IMG/VR virus record: IMGVR_UViG_2512047041_000010
Origin: a virus
Lineage: Duplodnaviria; Heunggongvirae; Uroviricota; Caudoviricetes
DNA: 41,896 bases
Strand: one strand, 5' to 3'
Both the position numbers and the translations under genes were made by a program. How positions within the stretch are numbered: position 1 is the first letter of the stretch; every line of letters starts with the position of its first letter. Shown here piece by piece: positions 1 to 41,896 of the stretch. Under the pieces are notes generated by a model, which searched no databases, had not been told where the DNA came from, and worked only from the letters and a program-made list of their open reading frames with translations.

Positions 1-516
1 ATGAAATTTAAAAAATGTCTTCTGCCTGTGGCAATGTTAGCGTCATTCACTCTGGCAGGATGCCAGTCAAATGCTGATGATCATGCCGCCGATGTTTATC
101 AAACCGATCAACTGAATACCAAACAAGAAACTAAAACCGTTAATATTATTTCCATTCTTCCCGCAAAAGTTGCCGTAGACAACTCCCAAAATAAACGAAA
201 CGCACAAGCCTTCGGCGCGCTTATTGGTGCAGTCGCTGGCGGTGTAATCGGCCACAATGTGGGGTCTGGCAGCAATTCCGGAACGACGGCAGGTGCAGTT
301 GGCGGCGGAGCTGTTGGCGCGGCAGCGGGTTCTATGGTGAATGATAAAACCTTAGTGGAAGGTGTTTCTCTAACGTATAAGGAAGGCACCAAAGTGTATA
401 CCTCCACCCAGGTGGGTAAAGAGTGCCAGTTTACGACAGGTTTAGCCGTTGTTATTACCACGACGTATAACGAAACGCGTATTCAGCCAAATACCAAATG
501 TCCTGAAAAGAGCTAA
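1..516 (+). CDS. putative lipoprotein with glycine-zipper segment (SlyB/Pcp-like)
   Basis: Complete ORF starting at window base 1; signal peptide ending in lipobox LAGC; Gly/Ala-rich stretch GALIGAVAGGVIGH typical of glycine-zipper lipoproteins. May be host or phage cargo. Confidence 0.6.
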   Translation: MKFKKCLLPVAMLASFTLAGCQSNADDHAADVYQTDQLNTKQETKTVNIISILPAKVAVDNSQNKRNAQAFGALIGAVAGGVIGHNVGSGSNSGTTAGAVGGGAVGAAAGSMVNDKTLVEGVSLTYKEGTKVYTSTQVGKECQFTTGLAVVITTTYNETRIQPNTKCPEKS

Positions 517-952
517 TGATCAGGAGGAGTCATGAAGAAAGTTTTTCTTTGCGCCATCTTAGCCTCCTTAAGCTATCCGGCTATCGCCTCATCATTGCAG
601 GATCAACTCTCTGCTGTCGCAGAAGCGGAACAGCAAGGTAAAAATGAAGAGCAAAGGCAGCATGACGAATGGGTCGCGGAGCGCAACAGGGAAATCCAGC
701 AAGAGAAGCAACGTCGCGCAAACGCCCAGGCCGCCGCTAACAAAAGAGCGGCAACGGCAGCGGTAAATAAGAAAGCTCGTCAGGATAAACTGGACGCCGA
801 AGCCTCTGCGGATAAAAAACGCGATCAAAGTTATGAAGATGAGCTACGCAGCTTAGAGATTCAGAAACAAAAACTGGCGCTGGCGAAAGAAGAAGCCCTG
901 AACCGCCCCGGGAATCCTGGAGACTAAACTTCCTGAGAAAGAGGTAAACAGG

Positions 953-1279
953 ATGACTAAAAATACTCGTTTTTCCCCCGAAGTCCGTCAACGGGCAGTC
1001 CGTATGGTTCTGGAAAGTCAGGGCGAATATGACTCACAATGGGCGACAATTTGTTCCATTGCCCCAAAGATTGGCTGTACACCGGAGACTCTGCGTGTCT
1101 GGGTACGCCAGCATGAGCGGGATACCGGAGGCGGTGATGGCGGGCTCACCACCGCTGAACGTCAGCGTCTGAAAGAGCTGGAACGTGAAAATCGTGAACT
1201 GCGCCGCAGTAACGATATCCTTCGCCAGGCTTCCGCTTATTTTGCGAAGGCGGAGTTCGACCGCCTCTGGAAAAAGTGA
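953..1279 (+). CDS. IS3-family transposase OrfA (HTH/leucine-zipper part)
   Basis: 108-aa ORF beginning [19 protein letters not shown], typical IS3-family OrfA; overlaps orfB start (ATGATG/TGA overlap at 1276..1279). Confidence 0.85.
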
Positions 1280-2166
1280 TGCCACTGCTGGATAAGCTGC
1301 GTAAGCTGTACGGGGTCGGACCGGTATGCAGTGAACTACATATTGCCCCGTCAACGTATTACCACTGTCAGCAACAGCGACATCATCCTGATAAACGCAG
1401 TGCCCGTGCGCAGCGCGATGACTGGCTGAAGAAAGAGATACTGCGCGTATACGATGGGAATCATCAGGTATACGGTGTGCGTAAAGTCTGGCGTCAGTTG
1501 TTACGGGAAGGAATCAGGGTAGCCAGATGTACAGTGGCGCGCCTCATGGCGGTTATGGGACTTGCCGGTGTTCTCCGGGGTAAAAAGGTCCGCACTACCG
1601 TCAGCCGGAAAGCCGTTGCCGCAGGCGACCGCGTAAACCGTCAGTTTGTGGCAGAACGTCCTGACCAGTTGTGGGTGGCTGATTTTACTTACGTCAGCAC
1701 ATGGCAGGGGGTCGTCTATGTGGCGTTCATCATTGATGTGTTTGCCGGATACATCGTGGGGTGGCGGGTCTCATCGTCTATGGAAACGACATTCGTGCTG
1801 GATGCTCTGGAGCAGGCGTTATGGGCCCGTCGACCGTCCGGCACAGTCCATCACAGTGATAAAGGTTCTCAGTATGTATCGCTGGCCTACACACAGCGGC
1901 TTAAGGAAGCCGGATTACTGGCATCAACAGGAAGTACTGGTGACTCGTATGACAACGCGATGGCGGAGAGCATCAATGGCCTTTACAAAGCGGAGGTAAT
2001 ACACCGTAAGAGCTGGAAAAACCGTGCAGAAGTGGAACTGGCCACACTCACGTGGGTGGACTGGTATAACAATCGACGATTGCTGGAAAGGCTGGGCCAT
2101 ACTCCTCCGGCAGAAGCAGAAAAAGCTTATTATGCTTCCATCGGAAACGATGATCTGGCAGCCTGA
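1276..2166 (+). CDS. IS3-family transposase OrfB (DDE integrase core)
   Basis: 296-aa ORF with DDE-type transposase features (WVADFTYV ... HSDKGSQY ... DNAMAES); recognised as IS629-like OrfB. Confidence 0.85.
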
Positions 2167-2429
2167 GTTCACAGATAAAACACTCTCCAGGAAACCCGGG
2201 GCGGTTCAGCCCGCGTTAAGCGAGAAAACGAATTTATCGATCAGGAACTGAAGCACAAAGCTGCGCAAACCGATGTGGTGCAATCTGAAGCTGACGCAAA
2301 CAGAAATATGACTGAAGGCGGTCGCGATCTGATGAAAAGCGTGGGCAAAGCAGAAGAGAACAAATCGGACAGCTGGTTTAATTAATCGATGTAAGTAACT
2401 TCAAGCCTATAATTCTTGAAGATAAAAAA

Positions 2430-2456
2430 CCCTCTGTAGTAACAGAGGGTTTTGTT
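2430..2456. terminator. bidirectional rho-independent terminator
   Basis: AAAAAA-CCCTCTGT-agta-ACAGAGGG-TTTTGTT; A-run on one side and T-run on the other, so it can terminate both the plus-strand left genes and the minus-strand lysis operon. Confidence 0.6.
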
Positions 2457-2604
2457 CATTCATAGTGCAGGGATCAAAATCATTCCCACTCAATTATTTA
2501 CGATAACCATAACCAATTGAGTGATAACATTTTTCCAAATCTCAATTTTTCCCGTACCGTTTTATATACCGTCACCGGAAATCAGTACCATGAAAAATGC
2601 CATG

Positions 2605-3087
2605 CTATCTGGTCAAAGTGTCGTACTGTTTTTCGCAGACTCTTCCGGCTTCGGCTGCCCGGTCAGCATACTCTGCCAGTTGTCTGTTTCTCTCGAGAGA
2701 TTTGCTGAGCACGTCGGCAAGCAAAACTCCGGTGTCTGCGGCTGACGACCCAGCGCCGACAATGGCGTTATACTGCCTGAGCTGCTCACGGATGGCAAAG
2801 AGTTGTTGCTGCAACCGGCCAGCGCTAGCGGCAGCATCAAGAGCATCATTGCGCGCCTGGTCGATCCTCTGCTGAGCTTCACGTTCATTGGTCACTTTCT
2901 CCTGTTCGTAGTACTGACGAACTTTGTCTTCTTCGGCTTTGCGGTCTTCTTCCGCCTGAGCATACCCGGCATCGTACTGGCGACTGCCGTGTATATTCCA
3001 GGCAACCACTCCTGATATGACCAGAACAGCAAGCACTGCCACGATAAGAAACTGTTTCCAGTATGCTTTTACGAATGCCCAGATCAT
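2605..3087 (-). CDS. Rz-like i-spanin (inner-membrane spanin)
   Basis: 160-aa ORF with N-terminal TM segment ([18 protein letters not shown]) and coiled-coil periplasmic part; start overlaps endolysin stop; last gene of the lysis cassette. Confidence 0.7.
2613..2849 (-). CDS. Rz1-like o-spanin lipoprotein embedded in the +1 frame of Rz
   Basis: Out-of-frame ORF wholly inside Rz; signal peptide [13 protein letters not shown] with lipobox, Pro/Ser-rich mature part. Start codon choice (2849) is an inference. Confidence 0.5.
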   Translation of the reverse strand: MMLLMLPLALAGCSNNSLPSVSSSGSITPLSALGRQPQTPEFCLPTCSANLSRETDNWQSMLTGQPKPEESAKNSTTL

Positions 3088-3713
3088 ACCGCCAGCACCT
3101 TACTGGCAGTGATGTACCGCGCTCGCCGGTCGTCGATGCCGTTCAGGCCACCATTGATAATCAGAGTTACACGTGCAATATCGCCGGTATACTTCATGCA
3201 TCCTTTGCTGGCGAAGAACCACGCCGCGCTACGAGCCGCATATCCGTCCTGCGCCAGCAGTTCAGGGCTCTCCAGCAGGTCAACCTTCAGACCGTTTCCG
3301 CAATCACGATAGTTATTCAAACCGGTAATCTGGATAAGTCCGCGCCCTCGGTAATTCCAGCCATCACCAGGGGCATTGTTCCCCATGCGTTTGCTGTATA
3401 CCAGATTTGCGATCGCGCGCTGGCGCTCAAGTGGCAATGGTGGTTCACCAGCACGGCGCCCCAGTGCATTAGCCTGCCCCTGAGTGAGACGCCCAGCCCG
3501 AACGAAGTTAGCCAGTCCGCTGACACTGTAGTTGAAATTCTCCTGCAACCTGGTGAAGCCCCCAGACTCATGCCCGACTTGAGCAATAAACATTGCCTGA
3601 TCTTCTGCTTTGCTGATACCAAACTCTTTCATCGCAGAAGTTATATGCGAGAACCAGCGTGCGGCCAGTGCCTCGCTGATACCAGCAGCTCGCTGGAATT
3701 GTTTAATCTCCAT
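3084..3713 (-). CDS. endolysin, glycoside hydrolase family 19 (chitinase-like lysozyme)
   Basis: Motifs [12 protein letters not shown] and [13 protein letters not shown] typical of GH19 phage endolysins; start taken at internal ATG (MEIKQFQ), which overlaps the upstream holin-like gene by 11 nt. Confidence 0.8.
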
Positions 3714-4402: not shown

Positions 4403-4708
4403 ACTTTCTCCTGTTTACTATCTATAAGCCAGTCAATTATTGATGACTAAACCTGCATAGTAAACCATATATGAATCATTATTGTTCCATATCATATATC
4501 TCAATAAAAGTACTAATGATTTTACAGAACGAGCCAGCAGAGTGGGGGCAGTTGTACAGGAACCATAGACTTAATTTTGTATTTAATAATGCTATGGTGT
4601 AATAAACCTGAACATGTATTTAAAATACGTACTGATTCATGATAGAATTCAAAGATAACTTTTCACAAACTCCGTTTTTGATACCCGCAAAATATTGCGG
4701 GCTTTTTT

Positions 4709-7700
4709 TTAACGTTCTTCCAGAGACTGAATCCGCTCTTTTATCTTATCCATTTCTCTGCGCTGCCATGCTGCCTCGATATAGAATAAGAGATCAGGTC
4801 TGACCCCCCATCTAGATCCTGCTGGCGTTATTTCAACGCGCTCAATGATGTCTTCCATTACCATCACTGGATTATCATCCTCATCAACAATGATGCTCCC
4901 GTCATTATCAGTCAGCGGCATTTCCCTTTGGCCAGTAATGACGTCATCATATACTGCGGGATAATCGTCATAGCAAAGAAAGGCATAGCGGCATGTTGTG
5001 CTTTCTTCTTCCATGAGTCCGTGAGAAATAAGAACATCACGAAGTTGCTGCGCGATTACACCATGATGTATCCTCGCCCCTTCTTCCCCCTTTATAGCGA
5101 CAGCGTTCAGCCATTTATAAGCGATATACCTGACGTCACCCCAGGCATCCAGCAATGCTTCGTCAGGAGAGACCGGCTCTGTCTTTAATGTTCCGTCACT
5201 GGTAACCACAGGATTGGAGCCAAGATAAACTGTCGAGAACCTGTTTCCCGGACCACCAAGAGCATTTACATTATCAAGATAAGGTTTAACATCTCCGTTC
5301 TCAAAAAGATGTTCGAGTGCGTTATATACCGCGCGACGTGGAGTACTGCTTCCGGAACCATGCAACGTTATCATTGCACCATCTGCTGAAGACGTTGTTT
5401 CACCGCCGCTAACGATTAATCTCTGAGCGGTAACATCATCAGACGGTACTTTCTTCGCAATAATGGCGTAATTACCCTCAAGTTTGACTTCCGCGCGAAC
5501 TTGTCCTGATGTACCTGCATGGACAGTCAGTGACTGGACGGCAACATCATCTGTGAAATCAACGGGTACAGGAACCGTCCTCACGCCTGACGTCGACATA
5601 AAAGTAGGAAGCGTTCTGTTAGGAGTGGCTCCGTAGACAAAATCCCTTGAAACAAATTCTTCCTGTTTAATTTTCACCCTGAAACAATACAAATCAGCCG
5701 GGTGACCATCGTGAACATAAGGATATTTTCTGTTGTTATCCCCTATGCTCCATGGGTTTAGAAAGTCTTCCCCACCGAAAATGTAGTACAGCCAGTTGTC
5801 TTTGATACAAACTGAACCAACACCAACCGCAGAGTTAACTATTCCGCCCTGATAAATCTGATCAGTAACATTAACCCACTCTACATTATCCAGACTCCAC
5901 TCATTGACGTTAACTCTGGTCATAAATGTTCTTGGATAATTTCCTGCATAACGGTTATCAGGCTCTCCTCCTTCCCACTCACCAAATGCGCGCTCACTGC
6001 CAAAAATAACCAGCTCATCGCCAACTTTGGCAAAAGGAAGGTTTGAGTGATGAACATTATTTGGGAAGCGAAGAGAATTCCATGATGTACCTAAATCAGA
6101 GCTTCTGTGCAATGAACTACCGGGTTGAGTACTTAATGTCCCCCTGGTCGTCAGATACAGAATGCCATCATAATATTTTACACATGGCTCAGATGCATTC
6201 GCCTCATATTCTGCAGGTATGCGTCTGCGAACAAAGCTACCAGGAGAACCGAAAGCATCAGAGAAATAGAGTATCCCAAGCTCGCGTGGACCAATATCAC
6301 CATTATGGTAGCCAACAGCAAAACTGTTATCGCTAATCGTCGCAAAACTGTGAATCTCAGTAACAGGAGTGCTTCCGTCAACAAAAGAAGGAATAGTTCC
6401 AAGACTGGTTTTTCTCCATGGTGACGAGTGAAATGATGTGCCAAAACTCCAGTATCTACCCTCGTTATTCTGATCCACATCCTGGGTATTTTGCGTCGTA
6501 ACTGTAAAGGTATTTTTATCAATAACAGTAGTCACCGTCATATTCCCGGTAACACCTGTAACACCAGAGTTTGAGAAGTTGACAAAATCACCAGCAAATA
6601 ATCCGTGATCAGTAATGCGAATATAAGCGACTTGCTGATTTGCTGCTTTCGTTATACCACCATAAACGCGAAGGCTGCGACTCATTGGGCGATCCCACAA
6701 CTCTGCAACCTGCAGTTTATTTCCGCTCACGGTCCGCGTCTCAATTACAGCAAAAAGGCGATTTCTGACAACCCCCATACTCATGCAGTGATAGTTAACT
6801 GTGGGATAGTTTTCATGTAAATCTGTAAGCCATTCCGGCGTTGTCCAGGTCTTCCCGTCATCTCCTGAGCGAACCCATGCAACATGGAGGTTATTTACAC
6901 CATGGCGGTCTCCAGCCATAAAAGGCGCATAGATGACATTGTCATATACAAACGTTTTATCCTGCGTCCAGGCGTTGTACCACGGTGTATCTGTAATTTT
7001 AAATAACTCTCCCTGGATAAAATCTTCAGAAGCATAAAAAAGAGGCTGGCCCGGTATTCTCTCAAATAAAAAACGAGCATTTTTAAATCGACTGACATCC
7101 GGAAGAGTTGATACTTTAAAAGTAAGCCCTAATCCGTCAATTTTATAACCTGGAGATGAGGCTTCAAGGCACGCGCTTATTGCAGTGGAATCGTCATTTA
7201 TACCATCACCAACAGCTCCAAAATCTTTGGGGCTAATAGCATCACGCATTTTATCCTGGAACGTTCGGTACACAGCCCCAGAACCATACTGAATAAACCA
7301 ACCAAAACCACCAACAACCCCGGCGATTGCAGCATCGACATAATTACGCATTGAGCGATTATTTACAGCGTCCTGCTCAAATGATGGATCTGCAAGGTTA
7401 GAAATTTTGTTTTGCTTTGCATCGTAATATTTTGCAAGCAAAGATGGTTTCATCAATGCACGTCTGAACCACCCAAAACATTGCTGGATCAGCATCGTCA
7501 GGTAGTCAAAGGCATCTTCATGCACTTCGGGGAAAAATTTTCCCTGATTGCGAAGGTCTGTCTCCTGCACTACATCAAGCACACGATCTATCGTAATTCG
7601 CCATCCAGTAGCAAGCGGAGACGGAAGAACCACAGAACCGCCACTATAAGTGCCCGCCCCAGTTACCGTATAACCGGTATCCAGAACCAATTCTGTTACG

Positions 7701-7828
7701 TTCCCGTTCAGGTCAGACACCTGAACAACCAGGTCTGATTTTCTGAAAATTCGAAAAGTATACGGAAACGATGTCGTAACGCCGTTACCGGTGTATTCGT
7801 TGTGGTCAACTTCGGTTGAGACCGTCAT
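4709..7828 (-). CDS. tailspike/tail fibre with sialidase-like beta-propeller domain and C-terminal peptidase S74 intramolecular chaperone domain (putative endosialidase)
   Basis: 1039 aa. N-terminal block MTVSTEVDHNEYTGNGVTTSFPYTFRIF recognised as a phage tail-fibre anchoring domain; two perfect Asp-boxes (SGDDGKTW, SSDLGTSW) and an xRIP motif (FERIP); C-terminus (SDGTLKTEPVSPDEALLDAWGDV...ARIHHGVIAQQL) resembles the self-cleaving chaperone of endosialidases and T5 L-shaped tail fibre. Confidence 0.7.
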   Translation of the reverse strand: MTVSTEVDHNEYTGNGVTTSFPYTFRIFRKSDLVVQVSDLNGNVTELVLDTGYTVTGAGTYSGGSVVLPSPLATGWRITIDRVLDVVQETDLRNQGKFFPEVHEDAFDYLTMLIQQCFGWFRRALMKPSLLAKYYDAKQNKISNLADPSFEQDAVNNRSMRNYVDAAIAGVVGGFGWFIQYGSGAVYRTFQDKMRDAISPKDFGAVGDGINDDSTAISACLEASSPGYKIDGLGLTFKVSTLPDVSRFKNARFLFERIPGQPLFYASEDFIQGELFKITDTPWYNAWTQDKTFVYDNVIYAPFMAGDRHGVNNLHVAWVRSGDDGKTWTTPEWLTDLHENYPTVNYHCMSMGVVRNRLFAVIETRTVSGNKLQVAELWDRPMSRSLRVYGGITKAANQQVAYIRITDHGLFAGDFVNFSNSGVTGVTGNMTVTTVIDKNTFTVTTQNTQDVDQNNEGRYWSFGTSFHSSPWRKTSLGTIPSFVDGSTPVTEIHSFATISDNSFAVGYHNGDIGPRELGILYFSDAFGSPGSFVRRRIPAEYEANASEPCVKYYDGILYLTTRGTLSTQPGSSLHRSSDLGTSWNSLRFPNNVHHSNLPFAKVGDELVIFGSERAFGEWEGGEPDNRYAGNYPRTFMTRVNVNEWSLDNVEWVNVTDQIYQGGIVNSAVGVGSVCIKDNWLYYIFGGEDFLNPWSIGDNNRKYPYVHDGHPADLYCFRVKIKQEEFVSRDFVYGATPNRTLPTFMSTSGVRTVPVPVDFTDDVAVQSLTVHAGTSGQVRAEVKLEGNYAIIAKKVPSDDVTAQRLIVSGGETTSSADGAMITLHGSGSSTPRRAVYNALEHLFENGDVKPYLDNVNALGGPGNRFSTVYLGSNPVVTSDGTLKTEPVSPDEALLDAWGDVRYIAYKWLNAVAIKGEEGARIHHGVIAQQLRDVLISHGLMEEESTTCRYAFLCYDDYPAVYDDVITGQREMPLTDNDGSIIVDEDDNPVMVMEDIIERVEITPAGSRWGVRPDLLFYIEAAWQRREMDKIKERIQSLEER

Positions 7829-7931
7829 GTTAAATCTCCAGATAGTCGCAGCACCCGTTGCGCCGCATATCTGGTTATTCTATTACCTGAAAAACCACAT
7901 ATGGATAGAAAGACTGTAAATACGAATAGAT

Positions 7932-7948
7932 ATTACCTTTCAGGTAAT
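7932..7948. promoter_or_regulatory. operator-like 17-bp palindrome ATTACCTTTCAGGTAAT
   Basis: Perfect inverted repeat of the ATTACC-N5-GGTAAT family, upstream of the LexA box and the small antirepressor-like gene; same core as the site at 27053. Confidence 0.55.
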
Positions 7949-7984
7949 TTGCAAAACGTGCTGGATAGCAAACAAATTATTTGC

Positions 7985-8004
7985 TACTGTATAAATATAC
8001 AGTT
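7985..8004. promoter_or_regulatory. LexA (SOS) box TACTGTATAAATATACAGTT overlapping a putative promoter
   Basis: CTGT-N8-ACAG with an AT-rich spacer, 18/20 match to the E. coli consensus TACTGTATATATATACAGTA; lies 20 bp upstream of the ATG at 8024 and contains a TATAAAT -10-like element. Confidence 0.75.
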
Positions 8005-8023
8005 ATTGCATGGAGAAGATAAG

Positions 8024-8281
8024 ATGCAGCAGTATCACTATCCACTGGAAGACGGATTTACCGAAAGGATTCACACGCCGGGAGGCGTCAGGTCACTGGT
8101 GGAGGGATCGCACTTGATGAAATTACTCCGGGATCTCGATAAGGATGGATTTAATGTCGATGGCCCACTTGCCGAACTGACTGCACTGATTAACTACGTC
8201 ACCAGCTCACAGATGTCTATGCAGGATCTGCAAACACATCTCGACTATTGTGCCGAACAATTACGAAAACAAACCAGATAA
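8024..8281 (+). CDS. small antirepressor-like protein (paralogue of the C-terminal domain of the downstream Bro-N antirepressor), probably SOS-inducible
   Basis: 85-aa ORF with SD GGAGAAG; about 35-40% identity by eye to the last ~70 aa of the 8597..9307 product (shared IHxPxGV, LMxLL, DGxxVxG, QTH blocks); LexA box immediately upstream. Confidence 0.6.
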   Translation: MQQYHYPLEDGFTERIHTPGGVRSLVEGSHLMKLLRDLDKDGFNVDGPLAELTALINYVTSSQMSMQDLQTHLDYCAEQLRKQTR

Positions 8282-8360: not shown

Positions 8361-8440
8361 CGGGCACTGGCAAAATCCAGTGCCGGGATTGGCGTCCCGG
8401 GTTACTAAGTGGCGCATACCACGCCAGACGTGGTTTTTTT
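8361..8440 (+). ncRNA. putative small structured RNA upstream of the antirepressor gene (possibly c4/antisense-type regulator)
   Basis: No ORF; stem-loop GGCACTGG/CAGTGCC, second stem CCGGGA/TCCCGG, then intrinsic terminator CCACG-ccaga-CGTGG + TTTTTTT (8419..8440). Carries ACTAAGTGG, which recurs at the antirepressor RBS, with its complement CCACTTAGG in between. Boundaries are approximate. Confidence 0.3.
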
Positions 8441-8596
8441 ATGCGTTAAGCACAGCTATATCCGAATTATGGTGGGCTGGGCAGGGGTCCGAAAGGACGC
8501 CGGTACCACTTAGGCCGGTACGCCAACCTTGTCCAGTTCACCACCAGTAATTGGCGTTGCGGTGGTGATTAAAATCACTAAGTGGAGATAACCACC

Positions 8597-9307
8597 ATGG
8601 CTAATGCTCAAACTGCCATCTTCAAATTTGAATCTGTTAACCCTATCCGTTCCATCATTATCGATGGCCAACCATGGTTTGTAGCCCAAGACGTTTGTAG
8701 TGCGCTGCGTATCCAAAACGTCACCCAAGCACTTGAAAAACTGGATGATGATGAAAGGTCTATGTTCAACATAGGGCATGAACATCGTGCAATTTTTGAC
8801 AGCCGAGTAAAAGAGATCAACATTATCTCCGAGTCAGGCCTCTACACACTGATCCTCCGCTGCCGCGACGCAGTGACACCAGGCACTACCCCCTACCGCT
8901 TTCGTAAATGGGTTACAGGTGAGGTTCTTCCTCAGATCCGCCGCACCGGAAGTTACATTAAAAACTCGCTCCCGCAGGAAGAGCGCATAAAGATGGTTGC
9001 CGACCAGGTAGCCAGCGCCACAGCATCAGCAGTGATGCAGGCAATGAAGGTAGAGAACAAAACCTACAGCGCCCCGCTGAAGCCCGGCTACCGCAGCCTG
9101 ATTCACTCGCCGTCTGGTGTTCTCGGCCTGACGGAAAACTCACTGCTGATGAATCTGCTGAACCAGTTACAGGAAGACGGGCACGACGTATCGGGCGCGG
9201 CGGCGGAGGTGACCACCATGTTCTGCTACATCGTCGGTGTGAGTAAATGCCTGCGTGATATCCAGACCCACGCGGAATACATCAACGACAAGGCAGGGTT
9301 CTTCTGA
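8597..9307 (+). CDS. phage antirepressor (Bro-N N-terminal domain plus C-terminal Ant domain)
   Basis: Start at ATG 8597, preceded by SD GGAGA; N-terminal FESVNPIRSIIIDGQPWFVAQDVCSAL is Bro-N/KilA-N-like; C-terminus homologous to the 8024..8281 product. Confidence 0.75.
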   Translation: MANAQTAIFKFESVNPIRSIIIDGQPWFVAQDVCSALRIQNVTQALEKLDDDERSMFNIGHEHRAIFDSRVKEINIISESGLYTLILRCRDAVTPGTTPYRFRKWVTGEVLPQIRRTGSYIKNSLPQEERIKMVADQVASATASAVMQAMKVENKTYSAPLKPGYRSLIHSPSGVLGLTENSLLMNLLNQLQEDGHDVSGAAAEVTTMFCYIVGVSKCLRDIQTHAEYINDKAGFF

Positions 9308-27390: not shown

Positions 27391-27467
27391 GTGGCATTAG
27401 CTCAGTTGGACAGAGCAACCGCCTTCTAAGCGGTTGGTCGCAGGTTCGAATCCTGCATGCCACGCCA
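27391..27467 (+). tRNA. tRNA-Arg (anticodon UCU)
   Basis: 77-nt cloverleaf: acceptor GTGGCAT/ATGCCAC, anticodon stem ACCGC/GCGGT with loop CTTCTAA, T-arm GCAGG-TTCGAAT-CCTGC, encoded CCA end. Confidence 0.9.
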
Positions 27468-40645: not shown

Positions 40646-41896
40646 TTATTCCCCCGCCATCCACTTCTCAAACTTCGACGGGGAGAACGGAATCAGATCC
40701 GTATGCTCCCCGTCAATCCATGAATCAATCATATCGGCCCACTGCTGCAACATGTAGGCGCGCTGTCTGGCGTATTCCGCTTTGTTATATACGGCGCGCA
40801 CACCTTTCTGCTCATGTGCCAGAGCCTTTTCAATCCAGTCTGAAGGATAACCAGCCTCATGCAACAACGTACTGGCTGTACGGCGCATATCATGTACAGT
40901 GAAGTCCTGAATATGCTCACCATCTTCATTTATTATTTTCACCGTTCTGTCGATCAGAGAGTTCAGCGCGGCATTAGATAATGGCTTCCGGAAATTGTAA
41001 CGACCAGGAACCAGATATTCACTTCCACCAGCGCACATCTGCAACCCGACCAATATATCCTGTGCCTGTTTAGGCAGGTAAATAACGTGCGCCCGGCTTC
41101 CCTTCATGCGGTCTGGAGGAATTGTCCATGTCCATTTTTTAAAATCTATTTCATCCCACGTTGCATTGGTGAATTCGCCCTTACGAACCATAGTGATAAG
41201 CACCAGTTTTAAAGCCATTTTCATAGTGCCCATAGCACCAATGGCATCCAGCGTGCGGAAGAACAGGCCAATTTCTTCTGGTGTCAGTGTTCGCTCTCGT
41301 GGTTTAAATATGGCGATAGACGAAGGTTTAATGTCAGCCGCAGGATTAAACAAACCATGACCACGGTCATTGGCGTGACGGTATACGCTACTGATGATCT
41401 CCCTGGCCTGCACTGCTGTTGCCCGGCCACCGCGTTCGACAATCCGGTCACACAAATCACGAACCATCGATGTGGTAATTTCAGCCATCATTTTATTGCC
41501 AAGAACCGGAAGTATGTCACGGTCGATCACCGCCTGTTTCATTGCGCGGGTACTGTCAGCCAGGATGACGTGTTTCATATAACTGTCGGTATGTACCGCA
41601 AACGTCTCGGCACCACGAATCTTTTTGATACCGTCACGTTTAGCCGCAGCCGGTGACTGGCCTGCTTTAAGCAGCTTCTTTGCAGCAATCAGTTCTTCTC
41701 GCGCTTCTGCCAGGCTGATACCGTCACGCCCATACTGCCCGATTACCAGTGTTTCGCGGCGACCGTTGATACGGTAGTCATAGCGAAACGAGACCGTGCC
41801 TGACGTAAGCACAGCTACATACAGCCCGTCACGATCGGAGACCTTGTACAGTTTGTCCTGCGGCTTGAGGTTTTTTAATTTTGTATCGGTAAGCAC
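40646..41896 (-). CDS. int: tyrosine site-specific integrase (P4-type, N-terminal arm-binding domain), 5' end truncated by the window edge
   Basis: N-terminus LTDTKLKNLKPQDKLYKVSDRDGLYVAV is the DUF4102-type integrase arm domain; C-terminal catalytic region with HDMRRT...LAH...Y motifs; ORF runs to the last base of the window. Confidence 0.85.
   Translation of the reverse strand: MLTDTKLKNLKPQDKLYKVSDRDGLYVAVLTSGTVSFRYDYRINGRRETLVIGQYGRDGISLAEAREELIAAKKLLKAGQSPAAAKRDGIKKIRGAETFAVHTDSYMKHVILADSTRAMKQAVIDRDILPVLGNKMMAEITTSMVRDLCDRIVERGGRATAVQAREIISSVYRHANDRGHGLFNPAADIKPSSIAIFKPRERTLTPEEIGLFFRTLDAIGAMGTMKMALKLVLITMVRKGEFTNATWDEIDFKKWTWTIPPDRMKGSRAHVIYLPKQAQDILVGLQMCAGGSEYLVPGRYNFRKPLSNAALNSLIDRTVKIINEDGEHIQDFTVHDMRRTASTLLHEAGYPSDWIEKALAHEQKGVRAVYNKAEYARQRAYMLQQWADMIDSWIDGEHTDLIPFSPSKFEKWMAGE

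Follow-up and report, generated by a model that had tools for sequence, protein, structure and literature searches.

Escherichia coli strains with the K1 capsule are a cause of neonatal meningitis, sepsis and avian colibacillosis. Endosialidases serve to diagnose K1 and to act against the capsule. The endosialidase of phage K1F, endoNF (PDB entries 1V0E, 3GVL and 3GW6), is the founding GH58 structure; K1F itself is lytic and T7-like, and endoNF shares its N-terminus with the T7 tail fibre (PMC5380687). The siaK1 gene of the P22-like Lederbergvirus CUS-3 (CP000711) is recorded with the GO term endo-alpha-sialidase activity under evidence code IDA (direct assay), the record citing PMID 16689790. 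Escherichia phage vB_EcoP_ZX5 (hereafter ZX5; MW722083, Uetakevirus), a temperate podovirus that forms plaques and for which an O87:H52:K1 strain was the isolation host, encodes a tailspike as ORF7 (QTH80017.1), for which the same three domains as described below were listed in a 2022 paper (PMC9782041), and a prophage of E. coli APEC O1 carries a copy (WP_000218907.1) that RefSeq names 'endosialidase catalytic beta-propeller domain-containing protein'. The spikes of epsilon15 and phiV10, by comparison, act on O-antigen and not on polysialic acid (PMC5380687, PMC9782041).

The window analyzed here, a 41,896-nucleotide stretch of phage DNA (IMG/VR record IMGVR_UViG_2512047041_000010), holds the same gene as ZX5 (3120 nt, two amino acid differences) and APEC O1 (one amino acid difference), with nucleotide identities of 99.8-99.9%. 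Both of these copies encode I607 where the window encodes V607, a conservative substitution six residues before R613 that is private to the window copy among the five genes compared, all others having Ile. On the minus strand the open reading frame extends without interruption from 7828 to 4709 (3120 nt), opening with an ATG that has GGAG 8 nt upstream. Within 4709-7828 only short repeats at chance level were found, antisense open reading frames are all shorter than 115 aa, and there are no Rfam matches. All four endosialidase Pfam domains as well as Peptidase_S74 score above their cut-offs (PF12218, PF12217, PF12195, PF12219 and PF13884), residues 205-876 match K1F endoNF (1V0E/3GVL) with E = 0 and 65.6% identity over the crystallized 665 residues, and the phage phi92 endosialidase (4HIZ) is matched at E = 1.7e-271. 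With the domain content, residue conservation, near-identity to characterized and published genes and prophage context as observed here, we are highly confident that the gene encodes a receptor-destroying GH58 endosialidase tailspike and that its carrier is an epsilon15-like (Uetakevirus) temperate podovirus, inserted into the E. coli chromosome at guaA. Given crystal structures at this level of identity and near-identical annotated genes, the question of identity is settled, and because near-identical copies carry annotation in many genomes and have been published, the tailspike is an ordinary one, already known and representing one more copy of a described, annotated family member. The coordinates of its features are collected in Table 1.

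Table 1. Features of the tailspike gene and its prophage, in window positions.
Feature	Position	Strand	Details
Endosialidase tailspike gene, complete	4709..7828	minus	1039 aa, 115.6 kDa precursor; stop codon 4709-4711
Virion-anchor module, epsilon15/Uetakevirus type	7238..7828	minus	aa 1-197
Junction segment, gene nt 583-698	7131..7246	minus	aa 195-232; ~50% DNA identity to both parental types
CUS-3-like tract, gene nt 699-3091	4738..7130	minus	99.4% identical to siaK1, 15 differences in 2393 nt
Endosialidase N-terminal extension (PF12218)	7016..7216	minus	aa 205-271; holds first RIP string, aa 257-259
Six-bladed beta-propeller, catalytic (PF12217)	5666..7015	minus	aa 272-721; Pfam and PDB alignment
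Beta-barrel domain inserted in propeller (PF12195)	6434..6682	minus	aa 383-465; Pfam
Stalk (tail-spike) domain (PF12219)	5201..5665	minus	aa 722-876; Pfam and PDB alignment
Asp-box 1, SGDDGKTW	6845..6868	minus	aa 321-328
Asp-box 2, SSDLGTSW	6080..6103	minus	aa 576-583
Catalytic residues	H309 6902-6904; R515 6284-6286; E547 6188-6190; R562 6143-6145; R613 5990-5992	minus	K1F mapping
Predicted self-cleavage site S877/D878 with K882 (Ser/Lys dyad)	5183..5200	minus	alignment with 3GW6
Intramolecular chaperone, predicted released	4712..5197	minus	aa 878-1039, 18.6 kDa; PF13884 spans aa 877-937
Attachment core ATTGAGTGGGAATGATT	2478..2494	minus	lysis-gene end of prophage; host DNA to left; exact match to ZX5 core
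Tyrosine integrase, other prophage end	40646..41896	minus	APEC O1 homologue adjoins guaA

A preliminary description, made from the sequence alone, had proposed a sialidase or endosialidase, and the catalytic domain bears this out. The propeller model PF12217 is matched at E = 2.9e-233 (773.8 bits), alongside the E = 0 match to 1V0E/3GVL, and the residues reported as catalytic in K1F, H350, R549, E581, R596 and R647 (PMC12632334), correspond to H309, R515, E547, R562 and R613 of the window protein with identity at five of five positions; this is thus not a propeller devoid of catalytic Arg and Glu, as R515, E547, R562 and R613 are kept. The two canonical Asp-boxes that had been pointed out are both present and align with the K1F boxes SGDDGQTW and SRDIGQTW. 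They are the only two matches in the tailspike to the relaxed pattern S-x-D-x-G-x-x-[WFY], and two or more such matches arose in just 0.12% of 20,000 shuffled tailspike proteins. An xRIP motif had also been read as a mark of the sialidase propeller; the string is real and occurs twice, at residues 257-259 and 536-538, but neither copy supplies a catalytic arginine. As candidate sialidase motifs both were rejected: R257-I-P sits in the N-terminal extension (Pfam boundaries 205-271), outside the propeller, and R536-I-P has Q-I-P as its K1F counterpart; the arginines of the catalytic site are R515, R562 and R613. The combination of a propeller with inserted barrel, an extension, a stalk, the catalytic residues and two Asp-boxes is that of the GH58 endosialidases, while the marks of a classical GH33-type sialidase, a BNR model above threshold and a catalytic arginine within RIP, were not found.

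The C-terminal region carries the peptidase S74 chaperone domain that had been anticipated. PF13884 is matched at residues 877-937 with E = 1.7e-10; the score of 41.4 bits (cut-off 22) rises to 45.3 bits for the isolated C-terminus, and for residues 757-1038 the alignment with 3GW6, the crystallized construct of the K1F chaperone, has E = 1e-93. The Ser/Lys dyad used by S74 chaperones in self-cleavage has been described (PMC3742443) and is present here at the domain boundary in the context VVTS/DGTLK, with lysine K882 five residues downstream of S877; the latter aligns with an Ala of the uncleaved 3GW6 construct, and K882 with the 3GW6 Lys. The autoproteolysis site, whose mapping had been suggested, is accordingly predicted at S877/D878 with K882, and while the domain stands as proposed, its length does not, the part predicted to be released comprising 162 residues (878-1039) rather than ~150.

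At the other end of the protein, the anchor (gene nt 1-582) is 98.5% identical in nucleotide sequence to the phiv142-3 tail fibre gene, and the N-terminus is 71.5% identical in amino acid sequence to the epsilon15 tailspike, with values of 68-72% against epsilon15 and phiV10 over ~165-197 residues. The sole phmmer match in the PDB is to domains D1/D2 of Dpo31, a marine podovirus spike (E = 1.5e-32), whose D1 contacts the virion base (PMC13317679). A tblastn search of the N-terminus against phages gave 155 matches at E <= 1e-3, from epsilon15-like phages and many other podoviruses; T7 and Teseptimavirus are absent from the 60 of these 155 matches listed and are not named in the organism counts. 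The model Phage_T7_tail (PF03906) scores 15.9 bits (E = 0.011) where 25.2 would be required, and covers residues 135-161 only. The T7-like tail module of the preliminary description is therefore a loose designation, given the sub-threshold PF03906 match and the identity to epsilon15, and judging from the sequence the N-terminal module is better called epsilon15-type, with any T7 resemblance probably only distant. Such a distant relationship is possible because a conserved domain named 'T7 like tail' is given for ZX5 by the authors of that study (PMC9782041).

The surrounding genes are consistent with this assignment, comprising a GP7 capsid gene (PF20911, E = 1e-149), a T7-gp8-type portal, a gp14-family core protein, a lysis cassette and an integrase, all of epsilon15 type. 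The temperate character ascribed to the phage is well founded, as the element has its integrase and attachment core along with a repressor-type HTH gene. Between lysis genes and integrase the whole prophage is collinear with that of APEC O1. The shared tailspike N-terminus, the epsilon15-type capsid gene and the guaA attachment core are together those of Uetakevirus. The host flank holds an IS3-family insertion in yfgI, which distinguishes the window from ZX5 and APEC O1.

From these observations a three-module spike can be proposed, in which residues ~1-197 would form the tail anchor, residues 205-876 the GH58 endosialidase and residues 878-1039 the intramolecular chaperone. Taking the enzymes of K1F and CUS-3 as models, we infer that the 115.6 kDa precursor trimerizes with the assistance of its C-terminal domain and that, after folding, S877 activated by K882 would cut the S877-D878 bond, the predicted products being an 18.6 kDa fragment and a mature spike of 97.1 kDa. 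Endo-cleavage of alpha-2,8 polysialic acid by the window protein is likewise predicted from the 99.4% DNA identity to CUS-3 siaK1. The evidence supports K1 polysialic acid as the target: beyond siaK1, the tailspike of ZX5, phage of a K1 strain, differs by only two residues, and the carrier genomes include the named K1 strains APEC O1 and O1:K1:H7 and O2:K1:H7 isolates. Of the sialic acid-containing capsule or O-antigen suggested earlier, the capsule thus stands in the form of K1 polysialic acid, while a sialylated O-antigen found no support. The phage would digest its way through to the outer membrane, its host range presumably limited to K1 strains, and because the lysogens are themselves K1 strains, the target of the spike would also be the host's own capsule. 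To an annotator the gene marks the prophage as probably K1-specific, although this is already known for this very member of the family.

Three other readings of the gene deserve consideration. A preference for a related polymer, either K92 with alternating alpha-2,8/2,9 linkages or O-acetylated K1, over plain K1 might be suspected from the six residues at which the protein departs from SiaK1 of CUS-3 in the 99.4% tract, and from the lack, unlike in CUS-3, of a neuO-type acetyltransferase: neither a neuO-like gene nor a heptanucleotide repeat was found beside the tailspike, which is followed by a 306-nt gap and then holin genes. We consider this extremely unlikely, however, as the six differences spare the five catalytic positions, which match K1F, and both the isolation of ZX5 on a K1 strain and the K1 type of the named carriers argue for the plain polymer. 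It is also very unlikely that the window copy is what remains of a decaying prophage or has fallen silent in catalysis, perhaps binding polysialic acid without cleaving it. Its chromosomal location, the IS element close by in the host flank and the private substitution V607 could be taken in that sense, but the reading frame is intact at the 3120 nt of plaque-forming ZX5, neither the cleavage dyad nor any of the five catalytic residues has been lost, the entire prophage is collinear with that of APEC O1, and I607V is conservative.

A classical exo-sialidase of the GH33 type, with a FRIP arginine, an arginine triad and a Tyr/Glu nucleophile, would trim terminal sialic acid of sialylated LPS or O-antigen rather than cleave polysialic acid internally. 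The two Asp-boxes, the two RIP strings and a weak match to the classical sialidase model BNR_2 (E = 0.0032) are compatible with such an enzyme; yet BNR_2 reaches 17.3 bits against a cut-off of 31.4, where the endosialidase propeller model reaches 773.8, neither RIP string falls on a K1F catalytic arginine, and the catalytic cassette is nearly identical to that of the CUS-3 K1 endosialidase, leaving this possibility almost vanishingly small. The endosialidase directed at K1 polysialic acid is accordingly the reading retained here.

The window gene is also a mosaic, joining an epsilon15-type virion anchor to a CUS-3-type catalytic cassette. Protein-level homology to endosialidases persists through the junction segment, and the flanks of the tract are endosialidase-homologous yet diverged: DNA identity is 57% at nt 613-698, and in the final 29 nt only 10 positions agree. 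Both tailspike types occur together in at least 44 of 5426 complete E. coli genomes, APEC O1 having been checked directly. Its two copies differ at 13 of 2393 positions, while copies of different type from different genomes differ at 12-16 and tract copies of the same type at 1-6; ongoing gene conversion between the APEC O1 copies was ruled out, as their 13 differences equal those seen between genomes. With moderate confidence we favor a single, recent passage of the cassette (nt 699-3091) between a P22-like prophage of the CUS-3 kind at tRNA-Arg and an epsilon15-like one at guaA, by homologous replacement involving two endosialidase genes already in place and not by fresh fusion, a process that co-residence in K1 strains may have favored. 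Tailspike module exchange has been established as a general principle since 2006. In K1 strains, virtually the same enzyme cassette sits on different anchors in two temperate podovirus lineages that are unrelated to each other and often share a genome, which offers a clean natural example of receptor-binding-module exchange, the population picture being of modest additional value. No mention of this cassette pair was found in the ZX5 paper (PMC9782041).

Placed among the known systems, the window phage is closest to ZX5 and the APEC O1 prophage, with which it shares prophage type, guaA attachment core and neighboring lysis cassette. With K1F endoNF it shares the domain order, both Asp-boxes, the five catalytic residues and the Ser/Lys dyad, differing by a seven-residue insertion (FVDGSTP, aa 481-487) and, in the chaperone relative to 3GW6, by an eight-residue insertion and one extra residue. 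The anchor, which fits the spike to tails of this kind, is shared with gp20 of the Salmonella phage epsilon15, with phiV10 and with phiv142-3 (Uetakevirus), whose receptor-binding parts are unrelated to that of the window, some relatives being annotated as right-handed beta-helices. CUS-3 presents the reverse case: its SiaK1 matches the window gene in propeller, barrel, stalk and chaperone, and is 95% identical in protein sequence over residues 193-1039, and each of the two genes sits on a temperate podovirus and appears to be K1-specific. CUS-3, however, has a P22-type head-binding N-terminus in a protein of 981 aa, a phase-variable neuO locus following the gene and integration at tRNA-Arg, where the window phage has an epsilon15-type anchor, holin genes following the tailspike and integration at guaA.

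The tailspike gene is a single, intact reading frame of 1039 aa running from 7828 to 4709 on the minus strand, with GGAG 8 nt 5' of its ATG start. That it is a silent remnant is very improbable. Every ORF antisense to it is shorter than 115 aa, and no Rfam families or meaningful repeats were found inside the gene (4709-7828). A GC-rich hairpin followed by T8 on the plus strand abuts the stop codon and, as a terminator, points into the tailspike 3' end, against antisense transcription. In the tailspike sense direction the hairpin is preceded by A8 and is without a T run, so that transcription past it into the holin genes seems possible.

Judged from its sequence, the protein is a member of the endosialidase family and not a classical sialidase. 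The K1F endosialidase (PDB 1V0E, 3GVL) aligns end to end with aa 205-876 at E = 0, with 65.6% identity over the crystallised part, and the phi92 endosialidase (4HIZ) aligns with the same residues at E 1.7e-271. The catalytic residues of the K1F spike, given in a deep mutational scan as H350, R549, E581, R596 and R647 (PMC12632334), correspond to H309, R515, E547, R562 and R613, identical in all five cases. The preliminary description, a sialidase-type propeller with a C-terminal S74 chaperone, is confirmed as an observation and supported in its interpretation, with two corrections. Both of its Asp-boxes (SGDDGKTW and SSDLGTSW) are present, and a relaxed form of the Asp-box pattern has exactly two matches, a count reached by only 0.12% of 20,000 shuffles of the protein. 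The first correction concerns its xRIP motif, as neither RIP string serves as the catalytic motif of a sialidase: K1F keeps R257-I-P (as R298-I-P), but the string is part of the N-terminal extension and not of the propeller, and R536-I-P corresponds to Q-I-P in K1F. The BNR_2 model of classical sialidases scores 17.3 bits, below its threshold of 31.4, and a classical exosialidase is a most unlikely identity for the protein. Relative to K1F there is a 7-residue insertion, FVDGSTP, just past the inserted beta-barrel domain, which CUS-3 SiaK1 also has.

Features of the tailspike (aa and gene nt numbering) and of its surroundings (window positions)
Feature	Position	Strand	Remark
End_N_terminal	aa 205-271		Pfam, above cut-off
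End_beta_propel	aa 272-721		Pfam, E 2.9e-233
End_beta_barrel (inserted)	aa 383-465		Pfam, above cut-off
End_tail_spike	aa 722-876		Pfam, above cut-off
Peptidase_S74	aa 877-937		Pfam, 41.4 bits (cut-off 22)
Asp-box 1	aa 321-328
Asp-box 2	aa 576-583
RIP strings	aa 257-259, aa 536-538
FVDGSTP	aa 481-487 (6386-6406)
Uetakevirus-type tract	gene nt 1-582		98% identity to phiv142-3
Diverged tract	gene nt 583-698		DNA ~50% identical to either parent; protein still homologous to endosialidases
CUS-3-type tract	gene nt 699-3091
Gene end	last 29 nt		diverged again, 10/29 identical
yfgH	1-516
yfgI fragments	~532-927, 2200-2385		split by IS3-family element
IS3-family element	953-2166		inside host gene yfgI, just beyond prophage
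orfA	953-1279		IS3 family
orfB	1276-2166		IS3 family
ALIL frameshift pseudoknot	1234-1350		Rfam RF01497; in IS3-family element
att core ATTGAGTGGGAATGATT	2478-2494
Hairpin	4684-4701 (with T8 and stop codon, 4684-4709)
126-aa ORF	7901-8281	+
isrK Hfq-binding RNA	8364-8440	+	Rfam
C4 antisense RNA	8465-8548	+	Rfam
BRO-N antirepressor	8582-9307
tRNA-Arg (TCT)	27391-27467	+
Integrase	40646-41896		at other end of prophage

The K1F chaperone construct 3GW6 aligns with aa 757-1038 at E 1e-93. Endosialidase chaperone domains excise themselves by means of a Ser/Lys dyad (PMC3742443), and the chaperone boundary here reads VVTS877/D878GTLK882. Alignment with the uncleaved 3GW6 chain, in which S877 lies opposite Ala and K882 opposite Lys, places the autoproteolysis site, whose mapping had been called for, at a predicted S877/D878 with K882. 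Cleavage there is predicted to convert a 115.6 kDa precursor into products of 97.1 kDa (1-877) and 18.6 kDa (878-1039).

The first 165-197 residues share 71.5% identity with the epsilon15 tailspike N-terminus, 68% with that of phiV10 and, at the DNA level, 98.5% with the tail fibre of Uetakevirus phiv142-3, the distal part of which is unrelated. The nearest solved relative of this anchor is Dpo31, a marine podovirus spike. The second correction is to the proposed temperate phage with a T7-like tail module, which stands as temperate and is imprecise as T7-like; Pfam Phage_T7_tail reaches only 15.9 bits (cut-off 25.2). The sequence itself shows how the domains are arranged, which residues serve catalysis and cleavage, how closely characterised relatives match, and the prophage setting. 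The K1F and CUS-3 literature suggests further that the chaperone would assist trimerisation, that self-cleavage would occur at S877, that the N-terminal module would fasten the spike to the tail, and that endo-cleavage of alpha-2,8 polysialic acid would give the virion passage through the K1 capsule. That the substrate is some other sialic-acid polymer has very little probability. CUS-3 siaK1, annotated for endo-alpha-sialidase activity with direct-assay evidence, is 99.4% identical in DNA to gene nt 699-3091.

The window is E. coli chromosome. Its att core is the sequence published as attP/attB for ZX5, phiV10 and epsilon15, which lies at the guaA 3' end (PMC9782041), and the prophage is therefore a temperate epsilon15-like podovirus. 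Its genes run from a DUF2514 protein, GH19 endolysin, two holins, tailspike and antirepressor region through internal virion proteins (including a T7 gp14-family protein), tail proteins, epsilon15-type GP7 capsid and portal to terminase, replication and recombination genes, a repressor-type HTH gene and integrase. A tRNA-Arg lies between the portal and terminase regions; the annotation of the APEC O1 prophage includes it as well. The IS-bearing yfgI flank is matched over at least 80% in only 3 of 5426 complete genomes, in one of which, strain N32, it is fused directly to guaA with the prophage absent. The isrK and C4 RNAs immediately precede the BRO-N antirepressor gene and suggest putative P1-type antisense-RNA control of the antirepressor in this epsilon15-like prophage. 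Between tailspike and antirepressor lies a 126-aa ORF with no significant Pfam match; to the eye, its C-terminal half is similar to the corresponding part of the antirepressor, and the ORF may be a partial duplicate.

The tailspike gene is a mosaic, and because the flanks of its CUS-3-type tract are homologous yet diverged, the arrangement fits replacement between two pre-existing endosialidase genes. When a match is required to span 80% or more of the query, the catalytic module occurs in 180 of the 5426 complete E. coli genomes, the epsilon15-type gene in 71 and the CUS-3-type junction in 153; at least 44 genomes must therefore carry both tailspike types, and some genomes have up to 4 matching places. 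Many K1 genomes hold two endosialidase tailspike genes in unrelated prophages, one CUS-3-like (tRNA-Arg) and one epsilon15-like (guaA). In APEC O1, a direct check found a 2946-nt tailspike gene (locus L007, 6698-9643) in the CUS-3-like prophage at tRNA-Arg, with a neighbouring acetyltransferase that only this prophage type has; the epsilon15-like prophage at guaA (tailspike at locus L003, 5042-8161) lies ~166 kb away. These two copies differ at 13 of 2393 positions, no closer than copies from different genomes (12-16 differences), whereas same-type copies differ by 1-6, and the cassette exchange thus looks like one past event rather than continuing homogenisation.

The gene is already known and annotated. 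Genes 99.8-99.9% identical to it occur in 71 of the 5426 complete E. coli genomes, under the RefSeq name 'endosialidase catalytic beta-propeller domain-containing protein', and the APEC O1 protein differs solely by V607I. ORF7 of the temperate Uetakevirus vB_EcoP_ZX5, isolated on an O87:H52:K1 host, is 99.8% identical and differs at two residues; its published description gives it a T7-like tail domain at the N-terminus, an endosialidase domain in the centre and, at the C-terminus, an endosialidase intramolecular chaperone (PMC9782041). All that is mildly new is the documentation that two often co-resident prophage lineages share one enzyme cassette.
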